Origin: an uncultured Bacilli bacterium
Lineage (GTDB): Bacteria; Bacillota_I; Bacilli_A; RF39; UBA660
Length of the DNA: 64,000 nucleotides
Assembly (NCBI GenBank): GCA_934119955.1
Contig: CAKOSZ010000001.1
Location: 46,592 to 110,591, forward strand
Direction of reading: 5' to 3'
Shown here: positions 3,679-49,889 of the stretch, piece after piece
How positions within the stretch are numbered: the first letter of the stretch is position 1
Layout of the letters: each line of letters begins with the position of its first letter
Translations under genes and position numbers: made by a program
Notes under the pieces: model-generated
What the model saw: only the letters and a program-made list of their open reading frames with translations
Databases searched by the model: none
What the model was told of the DNA's origin: nothing

Positions 3679-4908
3679 CTAGTTATTTTTTAACTCTTCT
3701 TCTATGCGCATTAATTGATTATATTTACAAATTCTATCTGTTCTTGACATAGAACCAGTTTTAATTTGACCAAGATTCAAGCCAACTGCTAAATCAGCAA
3801 TAGTAGTATCTTCGGTTTCTCCACTTCTATGAGAAATTACAGTATTATAATTATTCTTTTTAGCAAGGGCAATTGTTCTTAAAGTTTCCGTGATTGTTCC
3901 TATTTGATTAACTTTTAATAAAATTGCATTTCCTGCATGGTTATCAATTCCTTTTTGTAAATATTCTATATTAGTTACAAATAAATCATCACCTACTAAT
4001 TGAATTTTATCTCCTAGTCTTTCGGTTACTAATCTAAATCCTTCCCAGTCATTTTCATCTACTGGATCTTCAATTGAAATAATTGGATAAGTATTAATTA
4101 ATTCTTCATAATAGTCTATTAATTCTTGGGTTGTTAATTTCTTGTTTTCTCCTTTTAGATAATAGATACCATCTTCATAGAATTCACTGGCAGCAACATC
4201 AATTGCCATATTAACGTCAACTCCTGGGGTGTATCCTGCAAGTTTAATTGCTTCCATAATAAGTTCAAAACCCTCTTTATTAGTTTTTAAATTAGGAGCA
4301 AATCCTCCTTCATCTCCAACACTTGTAACATAACCTTTATCTTTTAAAACTTTCTTTAAATTATGAAATACTTCTGATCCTATTCTTACTCTTTCTTTTA
4401 TAGTATCAGCAGTTGGAATAATCATATATTCTTGGAAATCCAAGTTATTATCAGCATGAGCTCCTCCATTTATAATATTCATCATAGGACGTGGCATTGT
4501 AGTACCAGATCCAACATATTTATAAAGTGGCATTTTTTTCTCATTAGCTGCCGCTTTTAAACAGGCCATAGAAACACCTAAAATAGCATTTGCCCCGAAA
4601 TTAGATTTTGTTTTAGTTCCATCAAGTTCAATCATCATATCATCTATTTTTTCTTGATCAAAAACATCCATTCCAACAACTAAATTTCTAAGTTCATTAT
4701 TTACATGACTAACGGCTTTTAAAACTCCTTTTCCAAGGTAACGACTACCACCATCACGAAGTTCTAAGGCTTCTCTTTCCCCAGTTGATGCTCCACTTGG
4801 AACACATGCTCTTCCCATTACTCCACTTTCAAGAATTACATCAACTTCAACAGTTGGATTTCCTCTTGAATCCAAAATTTCTCTTCCTATTACATTTTTA
4901 ATTTTCAT
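3679..4908 (-). CDS. eno: Enolase (phosphopyruvate hydratase)
   Basis: N-terminal [30 protein letters not shown], and C-terminal [17 protein letters not shown] motifs. Confidence 0.95.
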
Positions 4909-5206: not shown

Positions 5207-6534
5207 TTTAAACCCTCAACTAATTTTTTAAATTCTGCTCCTCTTTCTTCACATTCTTTGTATTGATCCCAAGAAGCAGAGGCTGGACTTAGTAAAATAA
5301 CATCTCCACTTGCTGAACTTTTATAAGCATCATAAAAAGCCTCGTTTAAATGTTCATGAATAATTGTTTTAATTCCTAAACTATTCCCAAATTCTAATAC
5401 CCTCTTACGACACTGTCCTATTCCAAGAATTAATTTAACATTTTTCATAAATGGTTTTAATTCATTAAAATCTTGCCCACGTTCAAGACCTCCTAAAAAG
5501 ATAATAGTAGGTTCTGTAAAAGCATTTAAAGCAATTTGAGTACATTTAATATTAGTTGCTTCGGTATCATTATAAAACTTACGATTATTAATAACATCAA
5601 CAAGTTCTAAACGATGTTCTACACCTCTAAAATTTTCTAAAACTTTACAAATAGTTTCATTTTTAACACCAAGTTCTTTACAAATTATAATTGATGCTAA
5701 GGCATTACTAACATTATGATCTCCTTTTAAAAACATTTTATTTCTTGGCATAATAACTTCATCTTGATACATTAAATTAGAGTTTAAATAACTTGCATCT
5801 GCTTTTTCTTTTACAGAAAAATACATTCTTTTAGCCTTTAAATTACTAGTTTTTTTCATACTATCATAATTATCTAAATTAAGAATTGCTAAATCTTTAT
5901 TAGTTTGATTTTTAAATAATTTTAATTTAACATCTTGATAAGTTTCATAATCACCAAAGAAATCAATATGAGCCGGGCTTAAATTAGTAAGAAGTGCAAT
6001 ATCAGGCTTGAAGGTATCTAAATTAGCAAGTTGTTGACAAGATATTTCCATAACTAAAATATCGTCATCTTTTAAAGTATCAACAATACTTGTTAAAGGA
6101 TAACCAATATTACCAGCAAGTTTTACTCTTAAACCATATTCTTCTTTTAAAATATTATAAGTAAGAGTTGTTGTTGTTGTTTTACCATTTGTTCCAGTAA
6201 TAGCAATTAATTTTACTTTGGGTAATAAGTGATAGGCAAACTCAACTTCATTTATAACTGGTATATTTAATTTTTTAGCAAGTATTACATATTTATGATC
6301 ATTTCTAATACCAGGATTTTTAATAACATAATCAAAAGAACTATCTAGTAAATCATCAGGATGACTTCCTAATATACATTTTACTCCCTTTTCTTTTAAC
6401 TTAGTTATTTCTAAATTATCAGTTTCTTTTAAGTCATTTAATACTACTTCATTATTTAATTTAATTAATTTTGAAGCACAGGAAATACCACTTCTAGCAG
6501 CACCTAATACTAATATTTTTTTATTTTGAAACAT
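5203..6534 (-). CDS. murD: UDP-N-acetylmuramoylalanine--D-glutamate ligase MurD
   Basis: KKILVLGAARSG Rossmann N-terminus and GTNGKTTTTTL P-loop, Mur ligase architecture. Start placed at the ATG preceded by GGAGGT (MFQNKK...); the first in-frame ATG at 6546 lacks an RBS. Confidence 0.85.
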   Translation of the reverse strand: MFQNKKILVLGAARSGISCASKLIKLNNEVVLNDLKETDNLEITKLKEKGVKCILGSHPDDLLDSSFDYVIKNPGIRNDHKYVILAKKLNIPVINEVEFAYHLLPKVKLIAITGTNGKTTTTTLTYNILKEEYGLRVKLAGNIGYPLTSIVDTLKDDDILVMEISCQQLANLDTFKPDIALLTNLSPAHIDFFGDYETYQDVKLKLFKNQTNKDLAILNLDNYDSMKKTSNLKAKRMYFSVKEKADASYLNSNLMYQDEVIMPRNKMFLKGDHNVSNALASIIICKELGVKNETICKVLENFRGVEHRLELVDVINNRKFYNDTEATNIKCTQIALNAFTEPTIIFLGGLERGQDFNELKPFMKNVKLILGIGQCRKRVLEFGNSLGIKTIIHEHLNEAFYDAYKSSASGDVILLSPASASWDQYKECEERGAEFKKLVEGLK

Positions 6535-9841: not shown

Positions 9842-10768
9842 CTACATATCTTTTATTTCATTATAATTAGTGGGAAATCCCATTCTATCTAATACTTTAT
9901 CAATATTAATATGGCTTATATTTAATTCTAAATTCTTTAAATTGTGATTTATTTCTTCAATCAAATTACTAAACTCATTATGAGATAACATCTGTTTCAT
10001 AATAATAATTAAAGCAAACAAATCATTTTTACCATAGATATAATCATCATCCATGATAGGTATTTTTAATTCTTTATGATATTTTGTATCATTTACTTTT
10101 CTTTGCGTTTTATTTTCAAACACAATATCTTCATGAGCACACAAATTTCTATAATTAGATAAAATTGTTAAATAATTACCTAAAACATCTATATCTAAAT
10201 TATAAATTTCAGCAATTGCAAGTTGATCTTCTTTCTTTAAAATTGAATATAACTCTCCAACTATTCCAAAAGATAAGACCTTAACCAGTACCCACAAAGG
10301 AATATAACCATAATTAGTTACATAGTGCATAGTTGCTGAATGCTGAGTTGCATTTATATTAATTTGCCTTTTCATTTTCTTTAAGATGTCATTAACTTGT
10401 TTAGATTTTTCACGGTTAGTTGTAAAGTTTTTAGGTGTTAAATAATCTTTCTCTCTATAACCATATTTTAAAGATAACTGATAACTAATAATAGATTTAA
10501 TATTGTTTTCAATTACTAAAATATTTTTAAATATTATATTTCTAAATGTTCTATCAAATAGAAACAAACTATAAAGTTCTAGAAAATTTGTTCCTTCTAT
10601 ATAAGTTCTATCAGCACTACTTTTCATAAATAAATGTCTATATCCATTTAAAAAGAAATAATTCTCACGAAATAAAACTTCCTTTGCATATTCTATATCA
10701 TCAATCACTAACCCTTTATTTTTTAAAATCTCAATTTGTTCATTTAAGGTTTTAAATTCCTTTTTCAT
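9842..10768 (-). CDS. Abi family protein (Abi_2 domain, AbiD/AbiF-like abortive infection protein, HEPN-type)
   Basis: N-terminus KTLNEQIEILKNKGLVIDDIEYAKEVLFRENYFFLNGYRHLF matches the conserved Abi_2 start. YRNLCAHED supplies an Rx4H HEPN-like motif. Confidence 0.8.
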   Translation of the reverse strand: MKKEFKTLNEQIEILKNKGLVIDDIEYAKEVLFRENYFFLNGYRHLFMKSSADRTYIEGTNFLELYSLFLFDRTFRNIIFKNILVIENNIKSIISYQLSLKYGYREKDYLTPKNFTTNREKSKQVNDILKKMKRQININATQHSATMHYVTNYGYIPLWVLVKVLSFGIVGELYSILKKEDQLAIAEIYNLDIDVLGNYLTILSNYRNLCAHEDIVFENKTQRKVNDTKYHKELKIPIMDDDYIYGKNDLFALIIIMKQMLSHNEFSNLIEEINHNLKNLELNISHINIDKVLDRMGFPTNYNEIKDM

Positions 10769-11641: not shown

Positions 11642-12175
11642 ATGAATGAATTTAATGAACAAAACTTTTTAAACTATATAAAAACAACTAATATTTCATC
11701 AAATGAAATTAATTATTTAAAAAAATTATACAAAGTTTATAAATCACTTAATAAAATAACTGATAACGATATCAATAATAATATAATTAAAATAGCAGAT
11801 TTAGAAAATGAAATTTACACGGTAAATAATAATATTTTATCTCAATTTGATCGTATTAAAATAGAAATTATTAAAATTAAAAATGTTTATAATAAGGCTG
11901 ATCCCCTAACTCAAAGAAATGCTTTTCCTTATATTCGTAAATTGTATAATATTTTAAATAATGATAATTTCTCTTCGAATGAATACTTAGTTTTATATGC
12001 TAAAAAACTAGTTGTTACTATTCAATTAATTTTAAATATAAAAATAAACTTTTATTATGCTAGTTACCAAGTTTTTCTTGAAAAATATCGTAATTTAGAA
12101 TTATCTAATTTAAATAAAATAGAATATAAACCTATTAATAATAAAAGATTAATTAAAAAGGAGTTAAAGAAATGA
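11642..12175 (+). CDS. Hypothetical protein (operon gene 1 of 4)
   Basis: 177 aa, N/K/I-rich, no recognisable motif. AGGAG RBS. Stop overlaps next start (ATGA). Confidence 0.5.
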   Translation: MNEFNEQNFLNYIKTTNISSNEINYLKKLYKVYKSLNKITDNDINNNIIKIADLENEIYTVNNNILSQFDRIKIEIIKIKNVYNKADPLTQRNAFPYIRKLYNILNNDNFSSNEYLVLYAKKLVVTIQLILNIKINFYYASYQVFLEKYRNLELSNLNKIEYKPINNKRLIKKELKK

Positions 12176-13809
12176 ATATAGATAATTTTATAAGACAAAT
12201 AAAAACTAAACTTGATAAAGCTAAAATAGATTTGTTAAAAGAAAAAAATGAATTAGGTAAATTATCTTCTAAATTAATAGAATTTGATAATAATCTAGCA
12301 AATTTAAACTTAGACAATATTCAAGAAATCTTAATTTTATTAGAAAGTAAAGAAGAAGTAATTAAAGATATTCAATTTTTAAATTCTTATAAAGTACTTA
12401 TATCTTTTTTAAAAAATCCTCAAATAGAAAATGAAGGTGTTAAAAAAAATTTATTAGATGAATATAGTAGTTTAAAAGAAAAATTTAAAGTTAAGAAAAC
12501 TGAATTAATTGCTAAACAAAAATTATCTATTGAAAAACTTCAAGATTCAATTCTTGATTATACTAAATTAAAAAATTACTTAGAAAATTTAGATGGTGAT
12601 TATAGTTTAGAAGAAATAGATGAATTCATTGATTTATGTGAATTAATTGATATGAATCTTACTGATAGATTAAAATTAATTACTTATATTGGAAAAATTA
12701 GTCTTAAAGCATTTAAAAAGCGTAAAATAGAAGATAGTATTATTACCAAAGAAAATATTGAAGATATAATAGAACAAACTACTAAAAATGAGAAAAAAGT
12801 TGAAAAAAAATTAGAAATTGAAGATGACAAGGTTCTTGAAACTTTAACTGAGGAAGAAATAAAGACTAAAAAAGAAGAAGAAAGAAAATTTAAAGAAAAA
12901 GAGTTAATTTTAAAAGAATTAAGAAAAACTATTCAAGAAATATTAAAAGAACATAATGATATGTTAACTTACTATTATGATTTAAATGCTGGTAAAGATA
13001 TGTCTAAATCACCAATAAGTGCAAAAGACTATGGTATGTCATCTGGTATTATTCCCTATCTACTTGACTTAAAAAAAATTTTTGAGGATTCTTATGACAG
13101 TGATACTATTGATGATTGTATAGGACTTTCAAATATATCCTTAAAAGAATATAGAGAATATTTAGAAGTTGCTCCAAAGAAAGAAGAAGAAAAATCTAAT
13201 GATAGTGATACCTCACTAGATGATTTTACTAAAAAATCAGCCAATATTATTTTATTTTCTAAAAGTAATGATGAATATCAAATAGATCTTAATTTAAGAA
13301 GAGATGATGAAGATAAAAAAGCATTAAAAGAAAACGAATTAATAAAAGCTGTTAGATGCTTTGCTAATTCTACTTATATAGATGTTATAAGAGTTGGTTC
13401 TAACATTGATTTATTACATAAAGATGTTAAAAATAAATATAGAAAAAATTATGATAATGCCACAAGAGCATTCCGTCTAAGAGCAAGTGATAATTGTAGA
13501 ACTTGTTATGTAGTTGTTGATACTTGTGAAGAAAACATGAAAAAAATCAAGGAATTATATGGTAATAGTAATGTTACAGGTTCTGGAAGAGTTATTCTAA
13601 TATTCTCAGTTATTTGGGTTGATGCTAAACATAATGATGGTTATGATGAGGCTAATGATGATTTAAAAGATAACTTAGATTATATTCTTAAAATAAATAA
13701 ATTATTTAAAGATCCAAATACTAAAAAAGAAACTTTAAAAGAAATAATTGATGAAAGCATGACTAAATCTTTATCTATATTAAATAAAGAAAATAGTCTA
13801 CAAAGATAA
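12172..13809 (+). CDS. Hypothetical protein, 545 aa (operon gene 2); coiled-coil-rich N-half, Cys/Asp-rich C-terminal globular region
   Basis: Long charged K/E repeats. C-terminal CRTCYVVVDTCEE...RVILIFSVIWVDAKHNDG has loose D...D/E-x-K resemblance to PD-(D/E)XK nucleases (speculative). Confidence 0.5.
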   Translation: MNIDNFIRQIKTKLDKAKIDLLKEKNELGKLSSKLIEFDNNLANLNLDNIQEILILLESKEEVIKDIQFLNSYKVLISFLKNPQIENEGVKKNLLDEYSSLKEKFKVKKTELIAKQKLSIEKLQDSILDYTKLKNYLENLDGDYSLEEIDEFIDLCELIDMNLTDRLKLITYIGKISLKAFKKRKIEDSIITKENIEDIIEQTTKNEKKVEKKLEIEDDKVLETLTEEEIKTKKEEERKFKEKELILKELRKTIQEILKEHNDMLTYYYDLNAGKDMSKSPISAKDYGMSSGIIPYLLDLKKIFEDSYDSDTIDDCIGLSNISLKEYREYLEVAPKKEEEKSNDSDTSLDDFTKKSANIILFSKSNDEYQIDLNLRRDDEDKKALKENELIKAVRCFANSTYIDVIRVGSNIDLLHKDVKNKYRKNYDNATRAFRLRASDNCRTCYVVVDTCEENMKKIKELYGNSNVTGSGRVILIFSVIWVDAKHNDGYDEANDDLKDNLDYILKINKLFKDPNTKKETLKEIIDESMTKSLSILNKENSLQR

Positions 13810-13820
13810 GGAGTCTAACT

Positions 13821-15584
13821 ATGTATGATGAAAAAATAAAACAATTAATTAATTCTAGAATAAGTATGTTAGAAAATAAACTTCATAGTATAATTGATAC
13901 TTATCAAGAAAATAAAATAAGACTTGAAAAAATTATCAAAGATTTAAAAGAAATAAAAGAAGATTATACCAAAATTAAAACTTTTGATATAAAGCGTTTA
14001 AATAAAAATGAGCCTATTAATGAACCTATTTTAGACTCTTCACCAAGCATAGCAAATTTATCATTTTTTAGCCTTGCTTTAAATCAAGGTTGGATTTTAG
14101 AAAAAAGTGATATTAAAAAACTTAATTTCTTTGTTTTAGAATTTATTCAAGTATTTGAAAAAGAACTAGTTGAACTTGAAACAAATTATAAAAATAATCA
14201 AAATAGTAATGAAATTAATGATTTAAAAAATCTTCTTATTAAACTAAATAATTATAACTTAGAAGAAACTGATTTTGATTTACTAAAAGAAATATTAAGT
14301 GACAATACTAATTTAAGAGAATCAGTTGAAATTATGAAATATGTAGTACATAAAACTTTAAAAAATGCTTTAATTAATGATGATAGTATTTTACAAGAAA
14401 CTGGACTTGATATTGATAGTTTAAAAGAATTATTAAGTAAATATGATATTGATTTTGAAGAATTAAGACCTATTAGTAAAGAAGAATTACTTAAATATGG
14501 CTCTTTAACTAATATTTCTAATATTCTCTCTCTTTTAAAAGAAAATAACTTATTTAATAAAAATATTTATAATAGATATCAATTACCTATTACAAGAATT
14601 TTAATTTATTCAAATAAAGAATTAGTTGAAAGTATAATTAAATCTTATCAAAAAGCAAATATAAATATTAATTCTTTCTTAGATGAATTTTATAAAAGAC
14701 CTGCTAAGTTCATAAAAAGAAAAAGAAGATGGTATGGAAAAAATAATAAAACTGGTAATAAAAAGGAAAAAACAAGTAATGAAGATGAAATAGGTTCTTA
14801 TGAAGATTTTACCAGCAATATGGATTTATTCACTAGAATTGGAATAGATATAAATGAGGCTTATAAAAAAAGTTCTACTTTATTTGAAAAGGCACATAAT
14901 CATATTTTAATTGGTTACAATAATCTTAATTTATATGGTATAACACCTAATTACTATGCTAATACTTTAACAGTATTTAATACACATAAACAATTAGAAA
15001 CAATAGATATGTTTATAGAACTTGATGCTTATAATTATGTTTTAAATAATATGTCAAGAGTTAATTATACCCCTACTTCACTTATATTTCATAAATTATA
15101 TAGATTGAAAAAACAAGGAATTCCAGTTGCAACTCTTTATAGAAATAAAAAAGGTTCTATTGTTTTACCAATTCAAATTACAGATGAAAAATTAAGTTAT
15201 GATGGATTAAATAAAGATAATATGTTAACTGAAAATGGTATTTTTAAACCAGATAGTATTACTTTTAAAGTATATGATGAAATAATTAACCAAAATGATA
15301 ATAATTTTATTCAAGAAGGTATTTCAGATATTATTCAAAAGTTAGATGATGCTTACTTAGTAGAAAGTGAAGGTATTTTAGAAAATAAATTATATAACAT
15401 TGAAGGTACTATTATATCAAGACTTAAAGTACTTAGATATTTAACTACTTTAATATTTAATGGAATTAGTGAAAACAGTGATATGCTTTTATATGCAATT
15501 ACTAAAAATAGTTTATTAACAAAGGAAGAATTTGATAAAATTAAAACAAGTGTTGATAAATTATTAAATGAAAAAGTGAGGTAA
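13821..15584 (+). CDS. Hypothetical protein, 587 aa (operon gene 3)
   Basis: GGAG RBS 8 nt upstream. No recognisable domain. Confidence 0.5.
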   Translation: MYDEKIKQLINSRISMLENKLHSIIDTYQENKIRLEKIIKDLKEIKEDYTKIKTFDIKRLNKNEPINEPILDSSPSIANLSFFSLALNQGWILEKSDIKKLNFFVLEFIQVFEKELVELETNYKNNQNSNEINDLKNLLIKLNNYNLEETDFDLLKEILSDNTNLRESVEIMKYVVHKTLKNALINDDSILQETGLDIDSLKELLSKYDIDFEELRPISKEELLKYGSLTNISNILSLLKENNLFNKNIYNRYQLPITRILIYSNKELVESIIKSYQKANININSFLDEFYKRPAKFIKRKRRWYGKNNKTGNKKEKTSNEDEIGSYEDFTSNMDLFTRIGIDINEAYKKSSTLFEKAHNHILIGYNNLNLYGITPNYYANTLTVFNTHKQLETIDMFIELDAYNYVLNNMSRVNYTPTSLIFHKLYRLKKQGIPVATLYRNKKGSIVLPIQITDEKLSYDGLNKDNMLTENGIFKPDSITFKVYDEIINQNDNNFIQEGISDIIQKLDDAYLVESEGILENKLYNIEGTIISRLKVLRYLTTLIFNGISENSDMLLYAITKNSLLTKEEFDKIKTSVDKLLNEKVR

Positions 15585-15586
15585 AT

Positions 15587-15820
15587 ATGTTAGATTTTTT
15601 AGATGATTATTTTAATGAAGATGAATTAAAAGAAATAAAAAATAATATTAGAGGTCCTCTTGCATTTGATCTTAATTCAAATCAAGATAGTGTAATAGAA
15701 ATTGTTAAGTATTTAAAATCTTTAAAACTAAATGTATGTACTTTATTAATTACAGATACTGATATTTTCTTTAAAGAAATAGATGAAATAAAAGAATTGT
15801 TTATAGAAGAACTAAATTAA
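15587..15820 (+). CDS. Hypothetical small acidic protein, 77 aa (operon gene 4)
   Basis: GAGG RBS. Begins 2 nt after the gene 3 stop. Confidence 0.45.
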   Translation: MLDFLDDYFNEDELKEIKNNIRGPLAFDLNSNQDSVIEIVKYLKSLKLNVCTLLITDTDIFFKEIDEIKELFIEELN

Positions 15821-15840
15821 CAAGCATTGCTTGTTTTTTT
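15821..15840 (+). terminator. Rho-independent terminator of the 4-gene operon
   Basis: CAAGC-ATT-GCTTG hairpin followed by T7. Confidence 0.55.
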
Positions 15841-15923
15841 ATAACTATAATGATAGAATAAGGTTACTTAAAAAGAGATTATAATAATTTAATTCTAGTT
15901 AATAATAAAAAAGGAGGAAAATT

Positions 15924-15977
15924 ATGTTTGATTTAGTTAGTAAATATACTAAAATAAAACTAAAAAAAATGAAATAG
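15924..15977 (+). pseudogene. Duplicated uvrB 5' fragment (RBS plus first 9 codons MFDLVSKYT, then stop after 17 codons)
   Basis: About 44 nt (AAAGGAGGAAAATTATGTTTGATTTAGTTAGTAAATATAC) are identical to the real uvrB start at 17215-17258. Confidence 0.7.
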
Positions 15978-16046
15978 ATAGATGATTTGTAATTTTTATT
16001 GGTTTTAATTAGTTGGAAACAGGAAATATATATGAAAGGAAGATAA

Positions 16047-17072
16047 ATGAATAGTATAGAAGTTGGAAATGAAAAAAATATTTTATTTTATAGTGATGAA
16101 AATGGTCAAACTAAAATAGAAGTAGTTTTACAAGATGATGATGTTTGGTTAAATGTAAATGCCATAGCAAATCTTTTTAACGTACAAAGACCTGCTATTG
16201 TAAAACATATAAATAATATATATAGTGATGATGAATTAAAGAAAACAGCAACCTGTTCCATTTTGGAACAAGTTCAAGTAGAAGGAACACGAAATGTAAA
16301 AAGACAGAAAGAATATTATAATTTAGATATGATTATTTCTATTGGTTTTAGAGTTAATTCTAAGAAAGCGATTAAATTTAGAAGTTGGGCAAATGAAATA
16401 ATTAAAGATTATATGATTCAAGGTTTCGCACTTGATGATGATAGATTTATGAAAGCAAGAAAATCTGATCAAGAATATTTTAAAAGATTACTAGAAAGAA
16501 TAAAATTAATTCGTACTAGTGAGAGAATGTTTTACCAAAAAATTACAGATATATTTGCAGAATGTTCCATTGACTACGATAAAAATAGCAATATAGCAAA
16601 AGATTTTTATGCAACTGTTCAAAATAAATTTCATTATGCTATTACTGGAAATACCGCAGCAGAAATTATTTACAACAGAGTTGATAGTCAAAAGATGAAT
16701 ATGGGGCTAACTAATTGGAACAAATCTCCTGATGGAAAAATTTTAAAACCAGACGTTTTTGTTGCCAAAAATTATTTGGACGAAAAAGAAATAAAAAAAT
16801 TAAATAATTTGGTAAACTTATTTCTAGATATTGCAGAGAATAACGCCGAAAGAAATTTATCAATGAGTATGAGTGATTGGAAAAATGAAGTTGAAACATC
16901 CTTAAAATTATTTCATTATGATATATTAGAGGGTAAAGGAAAAATTTCTAATGAAACAGCAAAGCAAAAAGCAGAAAAGGAATATGAAAAATACAAAGTT
17001 ATACAAGATAAAAAATTTATTTCTGATTTTGATAAATTATTAATTGAAACAGAAAAAATAGAAAATCATTAA
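16047..17072 (+). CDS. RhuM family virulence protein (DinD-like)
   Basis: N-terminal ENGQTKIEVVLQDDDVWLNVNAIANLF...YYNLDMIISIGFRVNSKKAIKFRSWANEIIKDYMIQGFALDDDRF matches the RhuM family conserved core. Confidence 0.75.
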   Translation: MNSIEVGNEKNILFYSDENGQTKIEVVLQDDDVWLNVNAIANLFNVQRPAIVKHINNIYSDDELKKTATCSILEQVQVEGTRNVKRQKEYYNLDMIISIGFRVNSKKAIKFRSWANEIIKDYMIQGFALDDDRFMKARKSDQEYFKRLLERIKLIRTSERMFYQKITDIFAECSIDYDKNSNIAKDFYATVQNKFHYAITGNTAAEIIYNRVDSQKMNMGLTNWNKSPDGKILKPDVFVAKNYLDEKEIKKLNNLVNLFLDIAENNAERNLSMSMSDWKNEVETSLKLFHYDILEGKGKISNETAKQKAEKEYEKYKVIQDKKFISDFDKLLIETEKIENH

Positions 17073-17229
17073 AAATAATTACATCATTAAATTAATTATG
17101 TATATTAAAAAAAATATTAATTTAAACATAAAAATATAAAAAACATAAACAAATTTATAAATTAATAAATGATAATAATTATTATTCAAAAAGAGAAAAA
17201 GTTACAAAAAATTATAAAGGAGGAAAATT

Positions 17230-19182
17230 ATGTTTGATTTAGTTAGTAAATATACACCTAGTGGAGATCAACCAGAAGCAATTAAAGAATTAGTTGAAGG
17301 AATAAAAGATAATAAAAAACATCAAGTATTACTAGGAGCAACAGGAACTGGTAAAACTTTTACTATTGCTAATGTAATAAAGGAAGTAAATAAACCTACT
17401 TTGGTTCTAGCCCATAATAAAACTTTGGCAGGTCAACTTTATAGTGAATTAAAAGAATTATTTCCAAATAATCGAGTTTGTTATTTTGTTTCATACTATG
17501 ATTATTATCAACCAGAAGCCTACGTTCCATCAAGTGATACTTATATTGAAAAAGATGCTAAAATAAACGATGAAATAGATGAATTAAGACATTATGCAAC
17601 CAGTTCTCTTTTATCAAGAAGAGATGTAATTGTAGTTGCCAGTGTTTCTTGTATATATGGTATTGGAGAAGTTGAGGAATATAAAAATAAAACTTTAACT
17701 TTAAATGTTGGAGATAAAGTCGAAAGAAACGATATCATGGTAAAACTTATTGAAATGTTATACGAAAGATCAGAATTTGATTTTAAAAGAGGTACATTTA
17801 GAGTAAGAGGAGATACACTAGAAATAATTCCTGCTAATGAACATACTCATGGACTTAGAATTGAGTTTTTTGGAGATGAAATAGATAGAATAAGTGAAAT
17901 AGATACTTTAACTGGAAGTATTGTTACTAATAAAAAAAGTATTACTATCTTCCCTGCTAGTCACTTTGTAACAAATGACGAAAAGTTATTAAAAGCAATT
18001 AGTAATATTAAAGAAGAATTAAAAGAAAGACAAAAATATTTTTTAGATAATAATAAGCCTCTTGAAGAAGAAAGAATTAGAGAAAGAACTAATTATGATA
18101 TGGAACTACTTGCTGAAACTGGTTTTTGTCATGGAATAGAAAATTATTCAAGACATCTTGCTTTAAAAAAAGAAGGAGAAACACCTACTTGTTTGCTTGA
18201 TTTCTTTCCCAAAGATTATTTAATGGTAATAGACGAAAGTCATGTTACTATTCCTCAAATAAGAGGTATGTATAATGGAGATAGAGCAAGAAAAATGAAT
18301 TTAGTTGACTTTGGGTTTAGATTACCATCTGCACTTGATAATAGACCTTTAAAGTTTGAAGAATTTGAAGCAAAAGTAAATCAAGTAATATATGTATCAG
18401 CAACCCCAGGAGAATATGAACTTAATTTAACTAATAATAAATATGTTGAACAAATAATAAGACCAACTGGATTATTAGATCCAACCATTGAAATAAGGAA
18501 AACAAATGGGCAAATAGATGATTTAGTTGGAGAAGTAAATGATAGAATTAATAAAAATGAAAGAGTTTTAATTACTACTTTAACTATTAGAATGGCTGAG
18601 GAATTAACTAATTATTTAAAACAATTAGATATAAAAGTTGCTTATTTACATGCAGAGGTTAAAACTCTTGAAAGAATGAAAATTATAAGAGATTTAAGAC
18701 TTGGTAATTATGATGTTTTAGTTGGAATTAATCTTTTAAGAGAAGGACTTGATATACCAGAAGTATCTTTAATTGCTATTTTAGATGCTGATAAGGAAGG
18801 CTTTTTAAGAAGTAGCCGTAGTTTAATTCAAACGATTGGTAGATGTGCAAGAAATGAACATGGTCATGTAATTTTATATGCTGATAAGATGACTGATAGT
18901 ATGGAATATGCTATTAAAGAAACTAAACGAAGAAGAGATATTCAAGAAAAATATAATAAAGAACATGGTATTGTTCCAAAAACTATCGTAAAAGAAATAA
19001 GGGATTTAATATCTAATTTAGATGAAAATAATGATAAAAAGCCTACTAAATTAACTAAGAAAGAAAAACTTCAAACCATTGATAAAATAGAAGCCGAGAT
19101 GAAAGAGGCTGCTAAGGAACTTGATTTTGAAAGAGCAATGGAATTAAGAGATATTTTATTTGAAATGAAAGGTGAACTATGA
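17230..19182 (+). CDS. uvrB: Excinuclease ABC subunit B
   Basis: [10 protein letters not shown] Walker A, helicase motifs, and C-terminal UVR domain ([12 protein letters not shown]). 650 aa. Confidence 0.95.
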
Positions 19183-20018
19183 AATTTAGTAAAATCTATG
19201 TAGAAATTACTAATATTTGTAATTTAAATTGTTCCTTTTGTTCCAAAGATAATTTAAAGAAGAAAGAAATGTCTTTACAAGAATTCGACAAAGTATTATC
19301 AAAAATTAGACAATACACAGATACTATTTATTTACACATTAAAGGAGAACCTCTACTTCACACAAAATTAAAAGAAATCCTTGATTTAACAAGAAAATAT
19401 AAGATTAATGTTAGAATTACAACTAATGGAACTTTACTTAAAGAAAGGCTTAATACTTTACAAAAATACGACAATATTAGACAAATTAATATTTCGCTTC
19501 ATAGTGAAAATAATAAAGTAAACTATTTTGAAGATGTATTTCAAGCAGCCAATATTTTGTCTAAAAATATTCCTATCATTTATCGTATATGGTTACTTGA
19601 TAATTATAACTTAGATATTTTATCCACAATCATTGTGGATAAAATAATTGCTAACTACAATTTAGATAACAGTTTTAAAGAAAAAGTATTAAATAATAAA
19701 AACATTAAAATAACTGACAATATTTATCTTGATAAAGATAATAAATTTAGTTGGCCAGATAATATAGAAAACATTAATAAAGAAATAGGAACTTGTCTTG
19801 GTACAAGAAGTCACATAGGAATACTTGTAGATGGAACAATTATTCCCTGTTGTTTAGATAGTAAAGGATTATTAAAACTTGGTAATATTTTTACTGATAA
19901 TTTAGAAGATATCTTTGAAACAAAAAAGTTTTTAGATATTCATAATGGTTTTTTAAATAATAAATTAACCAATAATCTTTGTAAAAATTGTAGTTTTAGA
20001 GATCTTAAATTTAAATAA
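19179..20018 (+). CDS. Radical SAM domain protein with SPASM-like C-terminal Cys cluster
   Basis: CNLNCSFC (CxxxCxxC) near the N-terminus and C-terminal CCLDS...CKNCSF cysteines. Start overlaps the uvrB stop (ATGA). Confidence 0.65.
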
Positions 20019-20022
20019 ATTA

Positions 20023-20046
20023 AAAAGTGCCACCGCACTTTTTTAA
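20023..20046. terminator. Bidirectional rho-independent terminator
   Basis: AAGTGC-CACC-GCACTT hairpin flanked by A-run and T-run. Sits between convergent genes. Confidence 0.65.
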
Positions 20047-20055
20047 ACTATTTTT

Positions 20056-21027
20056 TTAATTATTTAATTCTTTCTTGATGTTTTCTAATTCTTTTTGATT
20101 AAGATTAGTAATTTCCATTATTTCTAAATCACTCATATTTTTATTTAATAAATTTTTAACTATAAGGGTTTGATTTTCTTTTTTTCCTTCTATTTTCCCT
20201 TCAATTATTCCTTCTATTTTTCCTTCAATTATTCCTTCCATTTTTCCTTCAATTATTCCTTCGTTTTTTCCTTCAAGTTTCCCATCAGTTAATCCAGCTA
20301 AATAGTTTTCCTCGGCTCTTAAATTTCTTTCCATATCCTCAGTCATGATTTCCTCCAAATATTTATTATCATTAGATAAATTATATAACTTTTTACTATA
20401 ATAATTTAACTCTTCATATTTAGAAAACTTTTTTAATTTATCTTCTGTATCAACAGTTAGTAATTTATATAATTTATCATAATTATCAAGATTATCATAA
20501 CCTAATTTTTCATAATAATCAAGATTAATGTTAATTATTTTAATAAGATAATCAACATTATATAGTTCTTTTAAGATATCATCCATTGGATAATCATATG
20601 TAATTATTTTTTTAGAAGGAACTTTTTTACTAAGATTTTTAGTTTTATACCAATTAAGATTAACTAGTATTACTTTATAAAAATTTCCTTTATCATAGTA
20701 ATTATCTTTATCAAAATTATAATAATTAGATAAAGTATTCAAGGCATATAAAACATTTCTTAGATAAAAACCTTGATAATTATTATTAAGTTCTATTATT
20801 ATTTTTTGATTTTTATAAACAACTACTAAATCAACATATTTTACTCTTTCATTTTCATTAATTCTTGGTAGTCTAATATTTAAAACACTGACTTTTCCTT
20901 TAATCTCTTTTACATCACATTCAAGTATTTGAGATGAGGCCCATTCTAGTAAACTCATATCATTTTCATTAAATAAATCGTGAAATAACTTATCATATCT
21001 TACTTGTAAAATTTTCTTATTCTTCAT
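20056..21027 (-). CDS. Rpn family recombination-promoting nuclease / PD-(D/E)XK nuclease-family putative transposase (copy 1, with internal GIIEGKxE repeat expansion)
   Basis: N-terminal LFHDLF...ERVKYVDLVV...NQKIIIELNNNY pattern and C-terminal LEGKxEG repeats typical of Rpn/YhgA-like proteins. The first 251 aa are identical to the ORF at 56896. Confidence 0.6.
   Translation of the reverse strand: MKNKKILQVRYDKLFHDLFNENDMSLLEWASSQILECDVKEIKGKVSVLNIRLPRINENERVKYVDLVVVYKNQKIIIELNNNYQGFYLRNVLYALNTLSNYYNFDKDNYYDKGNFYKVILVNLNWYKTKNLSKKVPSKKIITYDYPMDDILKELYNVDYLIKIININLDYYEKLGYDNLDNYDKLYKLLTVDTEDKLKKFSKYEELNYYSKKLYNLSNDNKYLEEIMTEDMERNLRAEENYLAGLTDGKLEGKNEGIIEGKMEGIIEGKIEGIIEGKIEGKKENQTLIVKNLLNKNMSDLEIMEITNLNQKELENIKKELNN
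20197..20292. repeat. Four tandem copies of a 24-bp coding repeat (GIIEGK[MI]E) inside Rpn copy 1
   Basis: TTTTCCTTCAATTATTCCTTC[CT]AT repeated head-to-tail. Absent from copy 2. Confidence 0.7.
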
Positions 21028-28233: not shown

Positions 28234-29937
28234 TTATTCTGCACTTATAATATAAGGATCATTTATACTTCCTGTTCCAGATATAATATTCGTTTGGGAT
28301 CCAAGACTTAAGACTGGACGAAGAGCGTCATAGCTATCAGGATCCGGCCAGCCTAAGTCAATGCCGTAGCGCCAGTCAGCCGCCCCCACGGAAAGCCCAG
28401 CAATAGGAGAAAGAAGCCAGAAAGCTGCTTGATCATTTAGCATCCAATTATTATAATTTTTATTTGCATAAACTGCTAAAACTTGATCCCCCCAACCACT
28501 TGGAATTCTTGCATATCCTAAATCACTTGGATATAATAAAGCAATTTTTCCATTCCATGTTGCTTGATTATTTTCTATTATATTACTCTCATCTCTTTCC
28601 ATTGCATATATTTCTTTTAATGTTCCATCATCTAATCCACCTAAATAATATTTCATATTCTCAATTAAATTACTATTTTCTAAACTATTTAAATAATTTT
28701 CATTTAAGTAATACATACTTACTGCTTTTGTCCAATCGTTATAATTCGTTTCTACACTTGATGGGTTATTCCAATAAAAATATTTATATTTTGTTCCTGT
28801 AACTTCTGTATTAAATACTTGATAAGTAATATTATCTTTTGTAATAGTCGCTGGCACTTCTGTACTTAAACTAATTGGTTCATCTTTTACTAGTTTTATT
28901 CTTTCAGCCTTTTCCCCATTTGCATTTTCTTCATTAAATATCCCCACTATTCTCCAAGTCTCATTATTAAATGTTACATAATTTCTTATTCCACTATCTG
29001 TTGGTATTGTTTGATTATTCTTTATACTTATAGTTGTTCCTCCAATATCAGTGCATGTCTTACCCATTATGTCAAACAAATCATTGTCTTCTGTTACAAC
29101 AAATTCTACATCACCTGATACATAACATGCTGTTTGAGGACAAGTATTACCTGAAACAGATATATTATAATCATTTGTTCCATCTGTATATGTACAATAA
29201 TTTCCTATTCCAGAATAACGATATTCTCTTATTGTTCCACCTGTTGTTGCTAGATCACCATCTGTGTTAACAGCCACAAGTCCATCTTGATTAGCACCAT
29301 TATATCTATTTTTTACTGTTTCAACAAAATTTGTTGGTGCTTCATATTTTCCATTTACATTTACTTTTATACTTGCAAATAAGTTTGACCAATCAGTTAA
29401 ATTATAGTCACAATTATCTGTTATATCTCCACTACATATATTAACACTTTCATCTATCCACATATATAATCTATATATTTTTGTTATTTTACTTGTTGTG
29501 TTTGCAGGTATTGTACTACTATATATTGTTGTATTATTAATATTTTCTATTGTTAATTTATCTTGTAAAATATTTTCTTGATTATTGTTAACTTCAACTA
29601 AACTAAATTTCAAGAATTTGTCTTCTATTCTTGTTTTATTTGCTTCTGTATCTCCATGAACTAATTCGATATTATAATTTACTCCATATTTTGTATGAGT
29701 ATTTTTTCCATCTATAGTAAATTCAAAATATTTAGTAGGATCATAAGTGCTACTTGGCATAGCACCTTCTATTTTAAATTCATTTGTTTCATTATAATGC
29801 ATATAGATGTCCCCTACTACAAGACTTGAATTATTAATACTTACCTTATTATAAGTAAAAAATGCAAATGATACTCCTATTGTTAATACTAAGATTGCTA
29901 TTACACTTAATACTATTATTAATTTTTTATTTTTCAT
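28234..29937 (-). CDS. Large secreted/surface-anchored protein (paralog A), N-terminal signal-anchor, Cys-containing extracellular region
   Basis: MKNKKLIIVLSVIAILVLTIGVSFAFF signal/TM. C-terminus ...RPVLSLGSQTNIISGTGSINDPYIIS shares a module with the 47683 gene. Confidence 0.5.
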   Translation of the reverse strand: MKNKKLIIVLSVIAILVLTIGVSFAFFTYNKVSINNSSLVVGDIYMHYNETNEFKIEGAMPSSTYDPTKYFEFTIDGKNTHTKYGVNYNIELVHGDTEANKTRIEDKFLKFSLVEVNNNQENILQDKLTIENINNTTIYSSTIPANTTSKITKIYRLYMWIDESVNICSGDITDNCDYNLTDWSNLFASIKVNVNGKYEAPTNFVETVKNRYNGANQDGLVAVNTDGDLATTGGTIREYRYSGIGNYCTYTDGTNDYNISVSGNTCPQTACYVSGDVEFVVTEDNDLFDIMGKTCTDIGGTTISIKNNQTIPTDSGIRNYVTFNNETWRIVGIFNEENANGEKAERIKLVKDEPISLSTEVPATITKDNITYQVFNTEVTGTKYKYFYWNNPSSVETNYNDWTKAVSMYYLNENYLNSLENSNLIENMKYYLGGLDDGTLKEIYAMERDESNIIENNQATWNGKIALLYPSDLGYARIPSGWGDQVLAVYANKNYNNWMLNDQAAFWLLSPIAGLSVGAADWRYGIDLGWPDPDSYDALRPVLSLGSQTNIISGTGSINDPYIISAE

Positions 29938-30162: not shown

Positions 30163-30246
30163 TTAGATATTTCTACCCCCCCCCCATGTAAAGTTTTGTA
30201 AAGTTAGAGTTTGATTAGTTGTAAAGCAATTATTTGGTTTATTCAT
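30163..30246 (-). CDS. Mini-ORF (27 codons, MNKPNNCFTTNQTLTLQNFTWGGGRNI) containing a G10 homopolymer; upstream ORF/leader peptide of surface locus A
   Basis: AAGGAG RBS 8 nt before the ATG. Conserved with the mini-ORF at 49740-49817. The G-run encodes the GGG tail. Confidence 0.4.
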   Translation of the reverse strand: MNKPNNCFTTNQTLTLQNFTWGGGRNI

Positions 30247-30272
30247 GAAAATCAACTCCTTATCATGTAAAA

Positions 30273-30301
30273 ATCATATCATGTTTTTATATATTTTTCA
30301 A
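30273..30301 (-). promoter_or_regulatory. Sigma-A-type promoter TTGAAA-17-TATGAT driving the mini-ORF/surface locus A
   Basis: Read on the minus strand: TTGAAA (30301-30296), 17-nt spacer, TATGAT (30278-30273). Confidence 0.55.
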
Positions 30302-30362
30302 GGGGTATTAGTTGCATTTTTATTAATTTTATGATATAATATGCGTACTTTGGGGGAATAAT

Positions 30363-47682: not shown

Positions 47683-49539
47683 TTATTTAAGAGCAATAGT
47701 AAATGGATTACTTTTAGTTCCATCTCCACCTGTTATAACGATATTTGATTTTAGATATATTGATGGACGAGCAGCAATAGTAGTGGAAAGTTTGATGAAG
47801 CTAACATCACCGGTTTTTTCAGTGTAATAAACACGAGAAGAGCTAGAAGGTGTTATTAACCACATACTACTTGAACCAGAATAACCACCTCCTTGTTGAC
47901 TGGCAAACATTTCTCCGTATCTTGGTAGCCCTACATAACCAGTATTCCAAATACTTGTTGTTTTAACACAATCTTTTGTTATTTCAGTGGTATTATTTGT
48001 ATTACATAAAGAATTTTTATAACTTGTACCTCTAGATATTTCTTTTATATAATATGTTCCTTTGTCTAACATATTTTTTTGTGCTAAACTATTATACCAA
48101 GTATTATTTAAATAATAATCCCAGTAATCATCACTATCTCCATTTCCATATGGTGTACTTGTACTAAACTTTTTAGTTAAAGTAGTTGTACCATTTTTTA
48201 TATAATCATTTTTATTTAATTTAACTTTCTCGTCTTCAATACTTACTATTCTATACAATTCTTTGGTTGTATTATTACCATCTTCGTCAAATATTACATA
48301 CTCACCTATTGTTCTTGTATTTAATAAAGTTGTATTTGCTGTTGCCGGTTCCTTATCTCCTAAAATTGTATATGGATCATCTTTGGTTCCCGAACCACCT
48401 AAAAGTTGGATATTTGATTTTAGATTTATTGACGGGCGAACACCATAGGTACTGGAAGGACTGCCGACGCCGTTGCTATCATTACCGCTGTTAGTAACAG
48501 CCCAAACATAAGAAGAGCTACAAGGATTTAATAACCACCAATCATAGCCTATATTTAAATAACCACCTGGGTATCCTATGTTTCCTATGTTTTTATAACT
48601 TAAATAATATTCATGCCTATTTAATAGCCCTACTGATGTATTCTTACCAATTGTAGAATTGTTTATTAAAGGTGTTATATTCCATGTACTATCTTCAACT
48701 ATTATATTTTGATAATTATATAAAGTATCTAAAAAGTCTTCATTTAACCATTGATACATGTATGATCCAGTATATGTTGTATCATCTTTTTTAGATATAT
48801 CATAAAAATTTACATCACTTCCGTAAGAAATAGTTGTAATTACATCATCTGTTATCATTTTCATAGTTCCATCAGAATTAATGGCTGTTATTCGCCAAAG
48901 TTTGCCACTATACCAAACATAATTAAAGTTTATACAAGTACTTGTTCCTGATATATAAGTTATACCATCTTCTTCTACTTTGGTTTTACATGAACCTGTT
49001 GGATTATTAACACTTGTTGCAATTGCATCTTTAACTGGTACTCCTAAGGTTTCATTTAGTTTTAATTCTATTCCTTGTTCAAGGGGAATTGGATAACCTG
49101 TTAAGCCTCCTTGGGTACCTAGTTTAATTGTTATGTCATTTTCTCCTATGTTTGTAAATGTAAAACTAAATGATTTAGATGAAGTCATATCACCTTCAAC
49201 TATATTATTTGTAAATGTTTCTGTTGATGTTACATTGAATAAAGATATACCTGACACTACTTCATAGTACATTTTATATGCTATTTGATTTGTTAATTCT
49301 GTTGTTAAATTAACAGTTAAAGTAATACTGCTTCCTTTTGGAATTGTAAAAGTATTATTCTCTTGATTTACTACTGTTGTTGTTATATTAATGGATGCTG
49401 TTTTTAAAACTATAACACTATTTTTTATAACTGATACTTCATAATATGCATACGATGAATACATTCCTATTGATAATACACACATTAATACTAAAAATAC
49501 TATAATTTTTTTATTTAAATTAATTTCTTTATCTAACAT
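47683..49539 (-). CDS. Large secreted/surface-anchored protein (paralog B) with two C-terminal repeat modules
   Basis: Signal-anchor. Modules ...RPSINLKSNIQLLGGSGTKDDPYTI and ...RPSIYLKSNIVITGGDGTKSNPFTI, related to the C-terminus of the 28234 gene. Confidence 0.5.
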   Translation of the reverse strand: MLDKEINLNKKIIVFLVLMCVLSIGMYSSYAYYEVSVIKNSVIVLKTASINITTTVVNQENNTFTIPKGSSITLTVNLTTELTNQIAYKMYYEVVSGISLFNVTSTETFTNNIVEGDMTSSKSFSFTFTNIGENDITIKLGTQGGLTGYPIPLEQGIELKLNETLGVPVKDAIATSVNNPTGSCKTKVEEDGITYISGTSTCINFNYVWYSGKLWRITAINSDGTMKMITDDVITTISYGSDVNFYDISKKDDTTYTGSYMYQWLNEDFLDTLYNYQNIIVEDSTWNITPLINNSTIGKNTSVGLLNRHEYYLSYKNIGNIGYPGGYLNIGYDWWLLNPCSSSYVWAVTNSGNDSNGVGSPSSTYGVRPSINLKSNIQLLGGSGTKDDPYTILGDKEPATANTTLLNTRTIGEYVIFDEDGNNTTKELYRIVSIEDEKVKLNKNDYIKNGTTTLTKKFSTSTPYGNGDSDDYWDYYLNNTWYNSLAQKNMLDKGTYYIKEISRGTSYKNSLCNTNNTTEITKDCVKTTSIWNTGYVGLPRYGEMFASQQGGGYSGSSSMWLITPSSSSRVYYTEKTGDVSFIKLSTTIAARPSIYLKSNIVITGGDGTKSNPFTIALK

Positions 49540-49739: not shown

Positions 49740-49817
49740 TTATATCCCCCCCCCCCATGTAAAGTTTTGTAAAGTTAGAGTTTGATTAGTTGTAAAGTAA
49801 TTATTTAGTTTATTCAT
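49740..49817 (-). CDS. Mini-ORF (25 codons, MNKLNNYFTTNQTLTLQNFTWGGGI) containing a G11 homopolymer; upstream ORF of surface locus B
   Basis: AAGGAG RBS. Paralog of the 30163-30246 mini-ORF. Confidence 0.4.
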   Translation of the reverse strand: MNKLNNYFTTNQTLTLQNFTWGGGI

Positions 49818-49843
49818 TAAAACCAACTCCTTATCATATGAAA

Positions 49844-49872
49844 ATGATATCATGTTTTTACTTGTTTTTCAA
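49844..49872 (-). promoter_or_regulatory. Sigma-A-type promoter TTGAAA-17-TATCAT for the mini-ORF/surface locus B
   Basis: Minus strand: TTGAAA (49872-49867), 17-nt spacer, TATCAT (49849-49844). Confidence 0.5.
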
Positions 49873-49889
49873 TATGTTTTTAGTTAATT

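Follow-up and report, generated by a model that had tools for sequence, protein, structure and literature searches.

The window analysed here is a stretch of 64,000 nucleotides from the genome of an uncultured Bacilli bacterium (GenBank assembly GCA_934119955.1, contig CAKOSZ010000001.1, positions 46,592 to 110,591 of the forward strand), in which a cassette with a single RhuM-family gene, rhuM, lies directly upstream of the DNA-repair gene uvrB. The 1,306-bp insert that carries rhuM is a presence/absence polymorphism within one species, and comparison with other hosts indicates that rhuM moves horizontally to this one address, where it is nested in the remains of a uvrB leader and is accompanied by an orphaned piece of the uvrB 5' end. 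With slightly more confidence than doubt, we read the locus as a recombinase-free module that spreads by homologous recombination through uvrB 5' homology on both of its sides.

Presence and absence of the rhuM insert within one species

The window has a G+C content of 23% and matches human-gut metagenome contigs, the longest of which comes from a Hadza sample, and its nearest genomes are metagenome-assembled genomes (MAGs) of uncultured gut Bacilli. An exact 40-nt direct repeat, AAAGGAGGAAAATTATGTTTGATTTAGTTAGTAAATATAC, occupies positions 15910-15949 and 17216-17255 and comprises the uvrB ribosome-binding site (RBS) and ATG with 26 coding bases (uvrB -14 to +26); when extended into its flanks, the repeat covers 49 nt at 94% identity. 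Allowing up to three mismatches, the 40-mer matches twice in the window and not at all in 100 dinucleotide-preserving shuffles, and a single other exact repeat of at least 25 nt was found in the entire 64 kb. A preliminary description, made from the window alone, had reported a duplication of the uvrB start of about 44 bp; the duplication is real, but its exact extent is 40 nt, and the dead-end open reading frame (ORF) at its left copy has 17 codons rather than 18. The same description had stated, correctly, that the 1.3 kb between the copies carries only a RhuM gene, which is the sole long sense ORF there (341 aa; PF13310, E 2e-101).

Empty sites were found by looking up the 77-aa protein (p77) encoded upstream of the insert, which returned contigs with and without rhuM. 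In three conspecific contigs (L130, L131 and L132), uvrB follows the 77-aa gene after 103 nt, with one copy of the 40-mer and no rhuM, and two more contigs end inside the repeat. The window aligns to L130 at 99.4% identity over positions 12106-15949 (3,844 nt) and at 98.7% over positions 17207-20295 (3,089 nt), and it has exactly 1,306 extra bases relative to this empty site. The left repeat copy runs uninterrupted from the native flank, as in the empty allele, and the window uvrB equals the empty allele without difference from -14 to +391. As the same RhuM protein occurs on 17 independently assembled contigs, with gene order alike at the places shown, the structure of the insert is not an assembly artefact. 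Two rhuM-positive contigs (L003 and L004) have a flanking single-nucleotide polymorphism haplotype in common with the empty contigs, and across the 1,306 bp they differ from the window at one site, 17139.

These clean conspecific empty sites demonstrate that the insert is a presence/absence polymorphism within one species, and the flanking haplotype shared by rhuM-positive and empty contigs makes this polymorphism recent and independent of strain background. The comparison with rhuM-less genomes that the preliminary description had proposed therefore bears out its claim of a small cargo inserted at the uvrB 5' end. The other part of that claim, a target duplication, is not supported. The repeat does not resemble the product of an insertion enzyme, as it measures 17-271 nt in relatives, its long forms end at uvrB +271, and it can be mosaic or foreign.

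Horizontal movement of rhuM to uvrB

Loci for comparison were drawn from 80 related species fetched with UvrB, from a metagenome scan and from protein look-ups, and were sorted into host groups within which uvrB is at least 95% identical. rhuM was found immediately 5' of uvrB at 33 loci in 13 host groups; among the 80 related species, it holds this position in L008, L009, L035, L036 and L074. Every rhuM with at least 80% amino acid identity on a long enough contig adjoins uvrB, and copies with 79% identity or less are located away from uvrB, save that of L036 (53%). Between loci whose uvrB genes are just 64-76% identical, rhuM is 88-97% identical at the nucleotide level (96% as against 67% for L094 and L089), and this disparity shows that rhuM moves horizontally to one address. 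The genes upstream of the cassette vary by host (p77, DAGK/471-aa, NAD synthase/CTP transferase and others), and uvrB alone is constant.

Pseudogene copies of rhuM, with stop codons, frameshifts or truncations, were found at uvrB in L074, L095, L096, L097, L100 and L109. In L074 (6113-6937), a 304-aa ORF of unknown family replaces the 3' part of rhuM. The same scaffold holds alternative cargo in the form of a peptide deformylase (L079) or a 304/307-aa ORF (L074 and L077), and the latter ORF is the sole cargo in L077. These observations point to frequent decay and cargo turnover at the uvrB site. The preliminary description had placed RhuM among typical island or prophage cargo; its accessory, horizontally moving character is upheld, but a prophage or island context does not apply here; a scan of viral contigs with RhuM returned no relative.

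The identities of rhuM and uvrB are strongly incongruent, about 70 of the 80 related species are without rhuM at uvrB, presence and absence occur on the same haplotype in one species, and the repeat is missing from empty alleles and from most rhuM-positive relatives. These findings largely refute an account of vertical descent, in which rhuM and uvrB would form an ancient operon with occasional losses and the repeat would be a conserved leader with a regulatory role instead of an insertion scar, and we give this account a very low probability, even though it would accommodate several observations. The sister species L008 and L009 (UvrB 98% identical) carry rhuM, at 80% amino acid identity, in the same place, and in L098 and L108 rhuM stands beside uvrC. 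A gut rhuM has an upstream LexA box that is bound in vitro by LexA of B. subtilis (PMC3998124), and the structural model of RhuM resembles the DNA-damage protein DdrC, such that damage-linked expression may help to retain rhuM.

The two loci with the uvrC neighbour belong to another lineage, and in both (L098:3123-6026 and L108:1791-4388) rhuM, at 63-70% amino acid identity, lies directly downstream of a UvrC-like gene, a call made by eye from its GIY-YIG-like N-terminus. With uvrB, this would make two excision-repair genes with which rhuM is associated. In yet another context, on L103 (a metagenome contig of unknown organism), an unrelated rhuM (51% amino acid identity) makes up a 1,290-bp insert at the corA 3' end. 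The insert is flanked by a perfect 108-bp direct repeat (4671-4778 and 5961-6068) that consists of the last 105 nt of corA and the stop codon. The ORF of this rhuM is 90% and 84% identical at the nucleotide level to those of L102 and L104, respectively, which lie in other contexts, and the homology is limited to the ORF.

The flanks of rhuM come from a uvrB leader native to related species

High identity between cassettes begins about 110-160 nt 5' of rhuM and stops within about 45 nt of its stop codon. The leader motif of the cassettes, CTAGTGTTATTTAGT ... AAATTTGTGACTTTTATTCGTCTC, is also found 110-165 nt upstream of uvrB in species without rhuM, including L016, L033, L034, L038, L040, L053, L063 and L066, and in these native leaders the motif is followed by GGGGACGAAT repeats and by GTCACAAA beside the Shine-Dalgarno sequence. 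In BLAST comparisons, the better-preserved left ends of the cassettes have 93-97% identity to native leaders across 27-30 nt (E 1e-8 to 1e-10). On the other side of the gene, the 149-nt tail of L095 matches the native L040 leader from -100 to -34 (83.6% of 67 nt, E 2e-9), and positions 17196-17228 of the window match L040 from -37 to -5 (84.8% of 33 nt, E 0.002). The copy of the leader's 5' half in the window is too decayed for a direct BLAST match; a remnant of the motif, GATTTGTAATTTTTATTGGTTTTAATTAGTTGG, is seen at 15984-16016, followed by the rhuM RBS.

With both flanks matching native leaders, rhuM sits inside a copy of the uvrB leader, and what had looked like the leader and the tail of the cassette, the latter a 143-nt spacer after rhuM, are two decayed halves of a uvrB leader native to related species. 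The AT-rich stretch upstream of rhuM, which the preliminary description took for a promoter-like leader of the gene's own, is accordingly the decayed 5' half of a native-type uvrB leader. The window species has no such leader at its own uvrB, as judged from the empty allele, which points to import of the module from a lineage that has one. A separate candidate at the left end of the cassette, GTGTTATTTAGTATC as stacked remnants of the uvrB start or as an att core, was rejected because this sequence belongs to the native leader; the true end of the remnant is uvrB +271.

In single-sequence folds of the leader, UUUGUGAC pairs with GUCACAAA to form a closing stem right next to the Shine-Dalgarno sequence, and AUUCGUCCC pairs with GGGACGAAU in an inner stem. 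Two-sided changes that preserve the stem pairs are present in L063 (GUGGCC/GGCCAC and CGUGC/GCACG) and in L079. RNAalifold, run on a MAFFT alignment of the native leaders that was itself poor, gave no consensus structure, and Rfam returned no match for the cassette region, for the native leaders or, in a scan of the whole window, for the locus. We put the leader forward as a candidate new cis-regulatory RNA of a DNA-repair gene, apparently undescribed.

Orphan uvrB fragments to the left of the cassette

The orphan uvrB 5' fragment left of the cassette differs in length among loci, measuring 17 nt in L136, 29 nt in L074, 40 nt in the window, 45 + 59 nt in L094, 70 + 44 nt in L036, 89 nt in L090, 271 nt in L079 and 273 nt in L101. 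All long fragments stop at TCATATTATGA (TCA TAT TAT GA; uvrB +271) and are followed by AAATAYCTYAAAT, the start of the leader copy. Elsewhere the junction takes other forms: in L074 it falls within a common 9-nt stretch, TTTAGTATC, in L090 uvrB' +88 is fused to the rhuM RBS, and in the window about the first 60 nt of the leader are missing from the cassette. Deletions that also took the leader start can explain the short fragments, and the 40-bp left copy of the window is most likely what was left when a longer orphan fragment was trimmed. The remnant of L094 is mosaic, its first 45 nt being 97.8% identical to the uvrB of the same locus and its distal 59 nt 83% identical, with non-conservative changes in a protein motif in the distal part.

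Relative to the nearest cassettes, the window junctions show microhomology only, which amounts to about 8 nt (AAAGGAGG) at the right-hand junction and 1-2 nt at the left-hand one, and the latter is unlike the junction of the family. Such junctions would also be expected if the duplication had been made in this lineage, through de novo homology-facilitated illegitimate recombination in which a foreign, truncated leader-rhuM-tail-RBS-uvrB fragment was anchored by uvrB and its left end was joined at +26 of the recipient. Naturally competent bacteria provide documented cases of this kind of recombination, and it has also been put forward to explain similar displacement arrays with orphan fragments (PMC3240628; PMC5361080). 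However, the window uvrB shows no donor tract, being the empty allele throughout -14 to +391, and a join inside the anchor region would be an unusual outcome for this process. As remnants of many intermediate lengths exist, it is equally simple to suppose that a longer one was shortened by deletion, and we consider an origin by illegitimate recombination unlikely.

Carried uvrB 5' ends and variable crossover points

L079 was compared with its conspecific empty alleles (L151-L153). The left copy of L079 equals the empty allele through +270, and its functional uvrB has about 48 differences, mostly at third-codon positions, from +1 to +265 and is identical from +266. A foreign uvrB 5' end thus came in with the 1,404-bp insert, and the native one was orphaned. 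L097, L095 and L100 are all rhuM-positive, with rhuM 98% identical, and the uvrB of L097 is 99.2% identical to that of L095/L100 over codons 1-88 and 77.8% identical over codons 101-410. This is the largest 5'-end excess among 5,778 pairs (mean 3.4, sd 4.2), and the shared block ends between +411 and +438. In these two related cases, L079 and L097, uvrB is thus a chimera with a foreign 5' end. L138 and L139, which are conspecific and rhuM-positive, have identical cassettes and 45 differences in uvrB from +15 to +610, and the transfers represented by L088/L089 and L094/L089 show no carried uvrB tract. Right-hand breakpoints are consequently variable, lying at the uvrB start, +266, +411 and +610. 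A model with a replacement 5' end had been rejected early on, as L088, L089 and L094 showed no co-transfer; this rejection was softened, since L079 and L097 do carry such ends.

In the rhuM-less pairs L019/L025, L053/L055, L029/L053 and L016/L020, the similarity of uvrB over codons 1-88 is 8-15 points below that of the remainder of the gene, which is the reverse of the usual uvrB pattern. These low-similarity 5' ends may reflect past swaps of the 5' end at the locus.

On the left-hand side, the junction of TCATATTATGA with AAATAYCTYAAAT is common to L101, L110/L136, L077, L079 and L094 and is degraded in L036, the L079 insert sits at one point (left copy native to +270, functional copy foreign to +265), and the empty sites are clean. 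On these grounds the module could be taken for an integrative element that is not autonomous and depends for its movement on a site-specific recombinase or homing-type nuclease encoded elsewhere in the genome, with its site at uvrB +271 in a conserved coding stretch and with a replacement uvrB 5' end as part of what it carries. No recombinase or nuclease gene was found in or near any examined cassette, nor at the other rhuM-uvrB loci with neighbouring genes listed. For the window, neither the cassette nor the annotated ORFs up to about 10 kb away on either side had an integrase or transposase domain in Pfam scans and precomputed annotations, so that the flank search for an integrase proposed in the preliminary description came back empty, and no terminal inverted repeats link the two cassette ends. 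The RhuM model is without a nuclease or recombinase fold, and the differing right breakpoints also speak against such an enzyme. Moreover, uvrB 1-271 is not co-transferred between hosts whose rhuM genes are 96-97% identical, such as L088/L089 and L094/L089, distal parts of a remnant can be old and decayed beside host-like proximal parts, and the +271 junction may be an inheritance from one ancestral event. A trans-acting enzyme is, in our judgement, quite improbable.

A model for spread by homologous recombination

Under the preferred reading of homologous recombination, the module is bounded by the functional uvrB at its right and by the orphaned uvrB 5' fragment at its left, a fragment that in its ancestral form would have spanned the RBS to +271 and would have been trimmed to 40 bp in the window. 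Because uvrB is conserved, incoming DNA could recombine with a naive uvrB irrespective of the sequence upstream of it in the recipient. A linear fragment would have its left crossover in the orphan fragment and its right crossover at or beyond the same point of uvrB. Such crossovers would regenerate the duplication, and their positions would decide whether part of the host uvrB 5' end becomes that of the donor. Recombination between the repeats, in turn, would delete the module cleanly and restore the empty site. This account fits the single address and the enzymes that were not found, and it also agrees with mosaic remnants, with uvrB genes that are chimeras and with breakpoints that vary.

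Several points weigh against it. RecA-type recombination and RecA dependence, competence, actual transfer, the trimming of remnants by deletion, the direction of events and the expression pattern are all read from end products. Some of the arms, the remnants of 17-40 nt, are very short for homologous recombination between species, and at the right junction of the window just about 8 nt of RBS are shared. The 100% identity of the two window copies means that the latest event took place within the species or in situ, which is uninformative on the primary mechanism. A site-specific enzyme or homing nuclease would also be expected to give a constant junction at +271 and an insertion at one point, as in L079, and the origin of the ancestral junction between +271 and the leader, located about at the -10 box or transcription start of the leader copy, is left unexplained. 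Finally, the corA duplication of L103 could hint at a rhuM-linked mechanism.

A broader version of the homologous recombination reading, which we offer tentatively and with more doubt than conviction, is that the orphaned housekeeping-gene fragment and uvrB act together as portable homology arms. The defence gene would then land at uvrB in any genome regardless of synteny, regenerating its arms and sometimes swapping the 5' end of the gene. Given the 108-bp corA duplication of L103, such a mode with a carried target fragment may be general for single-gene rhuM cassettes.

The RhuM protein and its probable expression

The RhuM protein matches PF13310 with 339 bits (cut-off 33.7) over profile positions 1-249 of 252, making it a full-length member of the family, and its N-terminus has a weak Bro-N match. 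It also matches the PDC-S05 models of PADLOC (E 4e-134); NCBIfam gave no meaningful match and a PDB sequence search gave none. The best solved-structure match of its AlphaFold2 model (pLDDT 84) is DdrC, which senses DNA breaks, and RhuM is accordingly predicted to be a DNA-binding protein with a DdrC-like fold. In E. coli, one PDC-S05 gene with a RhuM domain conferred protection against T7, T5 and T4, and the PDC-S05 representative lowered the plating efficiency of T7 and T5 about 1,000-fold (bioRxiv 10.1101/2024.09.26.614923), and the family has been predicted to be a toxin-like component of defence loci linked to restriction-modification (R-M) systems (PMC3710099). By analogy, the RhuM of the window is a candidate single-gene anti-phage protein.

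A scan for canonical LexA (Cheo) boxes that covered the whole window and the uvrB upstream regions of 78 loci returned none, so SOS control through a canonical LexA site is unsupported in this clade. Terminator prediction gave none in the tail (17073-17215) and none between the native uvrB promoter region and uvrB, and for this reason rhuM and uvrB probably share a transcript that starts at the native uvrB promoter. Four observations tie the RhuM family to DNA damage, namely the LexA box of the gut rhuM, the uvrC neighbour, the DdrC-like predicted fold and the position in a uvrB leader.

Comparison with known systems

The minimal mobile elements of Saunders & Snyder (2002) and Snyder et al. 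(2007), in the description given by PMC3082526, resemble the uvrB module in the lack of mobility genes, in the alternative contents of one site (here rhuM, the deformylase, the 304/307-aa ORF or nothing) and in the proposed homologous recombination in conserved flanks after DNA uptake. The uvrB module differs in having one conserved flanking gene instead of two, with varying upstream neighbours, and in its second arm, which travels with the cassette and is itself an orphaned piece of uvrB. Carriage of this arm would make the module independent of synteny, and it would leave a duplication and sometimes a chimeric uvrB. In Rhs and type VI secretion system (T6SS) displacement arrays (PMC5361080; PMC3240628), incoming DNA is likewise anchored by a conserved stretch of a resident gene, and the displaced end of the ancestral gene is kept as an orphan beside the new cargo. 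In the present case, by contrast, the displaced piece is the 5' end of a fully restored housekeeping repair gene, and a single defence-type gene lies inside a leader, in a module present in at least 13 host lineages.

Phage 21 and e14 are integrative elements that bring along a replacement for the icd 3' end. As in L079, a foreign end of the target gene keeps the gene intact, the native end becomes a pseudo-fragment, and the repeats are long and imperfect. The uvrB module differs from them in that no integrase was found, crossovers vary, it consists of 1.3-1.4 kb with one gene, and it involves the 5' end of its target including the RBS. It is thus unlike all three systems, with no recombinase, one anchor gene, a carried fragment as an arm and cargo nested in a leader. 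It is equally unlike the usual contexts of RhuM, which are R-M operons, islands and prophages, as rhuM here stands alone between the uvrB promoter and uvrB, with no partners.

Established classes of mobile DNA were also considered. For a transposon or insertion sequence, there are no inverted repeats at the ends, and the duplication varies from 17 to 273 nt between hosts rather than being of fixed length. With regard to an integrative element, no recombinase lies in or adjoins the module (ORFs within about 10 kb), and several loci share a left junction at +271, with varying right breakpoints and remnants of 17-273 nt. For a free-standing homing endonuclease, the cargo protein is not a nuclease; the co-transferred uvrB 5' tracts of L079 and L097 end at different places, and other transfers have none. 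Compared with integron cassettes, no integrase was found, and the hairpin-forming left end is homologous to native uvrB leaders and not to attC.

Feature map and neighbouring genes of the window

The features at the insert are listed in Table 1. The native uvrB intergenic region begins at the terminator of the 77-aa gene, and the stretch that follows, presumed to hold the promoter, now lies 5' of the orphan fragment and rhuM.

Table 1. Positions of features around the rhuM insert in the window, and of native uvrB leaders in related species
Feature	Location	Strand	Basis or remark
Intrinsic terminator of the upstream 77-aa gene (p77)	15819..15835	+	Terminator-like hairpin and T run; also in empty-site contigs
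Native uvrB upstream region, presumed promoter	15836..15909	+	Identical in empty alleles L130-L132, there directly before uvrB
Left repeat copy, orphan uvrB 5' fragment with RBS AAAGGAGG	15910..15949	+	Exact 40-nt match to 17216-17255
Dead-end ORF of 17 codons, opened by the orphan uvrB start codon	15924..15977	+	Read from sequence
Truncated, decayed 5' half of a foreign uvrB-type leader	15950..16046	+	Homologous to cassette leaders of L074, L035 and L036
rhuM, 341 aa	16047..17072	+	Pfam PF13310, E 2e-101; PADLOC PDC-S05
Tail, decayed 3' half of a uvrB-type leader, ending just before the RBS	17073..17215	+	Homologous to 149-nt tails of L095, L097 and L100
Right repeat copy, RBS and start of functional uvrB	17216..17255	+	Exact repeat
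uvrB, intact, 650 aa	17230..19182	+	Pfam UvrB_inter, UvrB, Helicase_C and UVR
1,306-bp segment missing from conspecific empty alleles	15950..17255 (equally 15910-17215)	+	Alignment to L130
Native leaders upstream of uvrB, about 130-190 nt	L016:7866-8000; L066:1104-1236; L038:7866-8000		
Native leaders upstream of uvrB, continued	L040:7852-8000; L034:7850-8000; L063:7828-8000		

Upstream of the insert, four successive ORFs (177, 545, 587 and 77 aa; 11642-15820) have no Pfam matches, and the three largest tested gave no NCBIfam or PADLOC matches. The 545-, 587- and 77-aa proteins are only 35-68% identical to those of the sister species, compared with 98% for UvrB, and an Abi_2 gene lies nearby at 9842-10768 on the minus strand. 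These ORFs may represent a fast-evolving, defence-type locus. Downstream of uvrB, a 323-aa protein encoded at 20056-21027 on the minus strand has a C-terminal (EGKxEGII)n repeat and gave no significant Pfam hit; by eye, its N-terminus resembles Rpn/PD-(D/E)XK 'transposase-like' proteins, a likeness that is unconfirmed.

Farther along the window, two near-identical segments of about 130 nt (30176-30310 and 49747-49880) each begin with C10 on the plus strand and, when read on the minus strand, have an RBS and an ATG that opens about 25 codons ahead of a G10 tract. They sit just 5' of two family-less minus-strand ORFs, 28234-29937 (567 aa) and 47683-49539 (618 aa). The two G10 genes look like paralogues, and slippage at the homopolymer could switch them on and off.

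Significance

Single-gene defence systems are scattered through genomes, and the route by which they arrive is often unclear. The uvrB locus offers a testable, recombinase-free route, in which a conserved repair gene would serve as the address and its orphaned piece as the other arm of homology. Movement of this kind can alter a core gene, as the chimeric uvrB 5' ends show, and this matters for phylogenies and for MAG-based strain typing. As a by-product, the comparison yielded an apparently undescribed leader, predicted to be structured, 5' of uvrB in uncultured gut Bacilli. The locus also links the poorly understood RhuM/PDC-S05 candidate defence family with the DNA-damage response.

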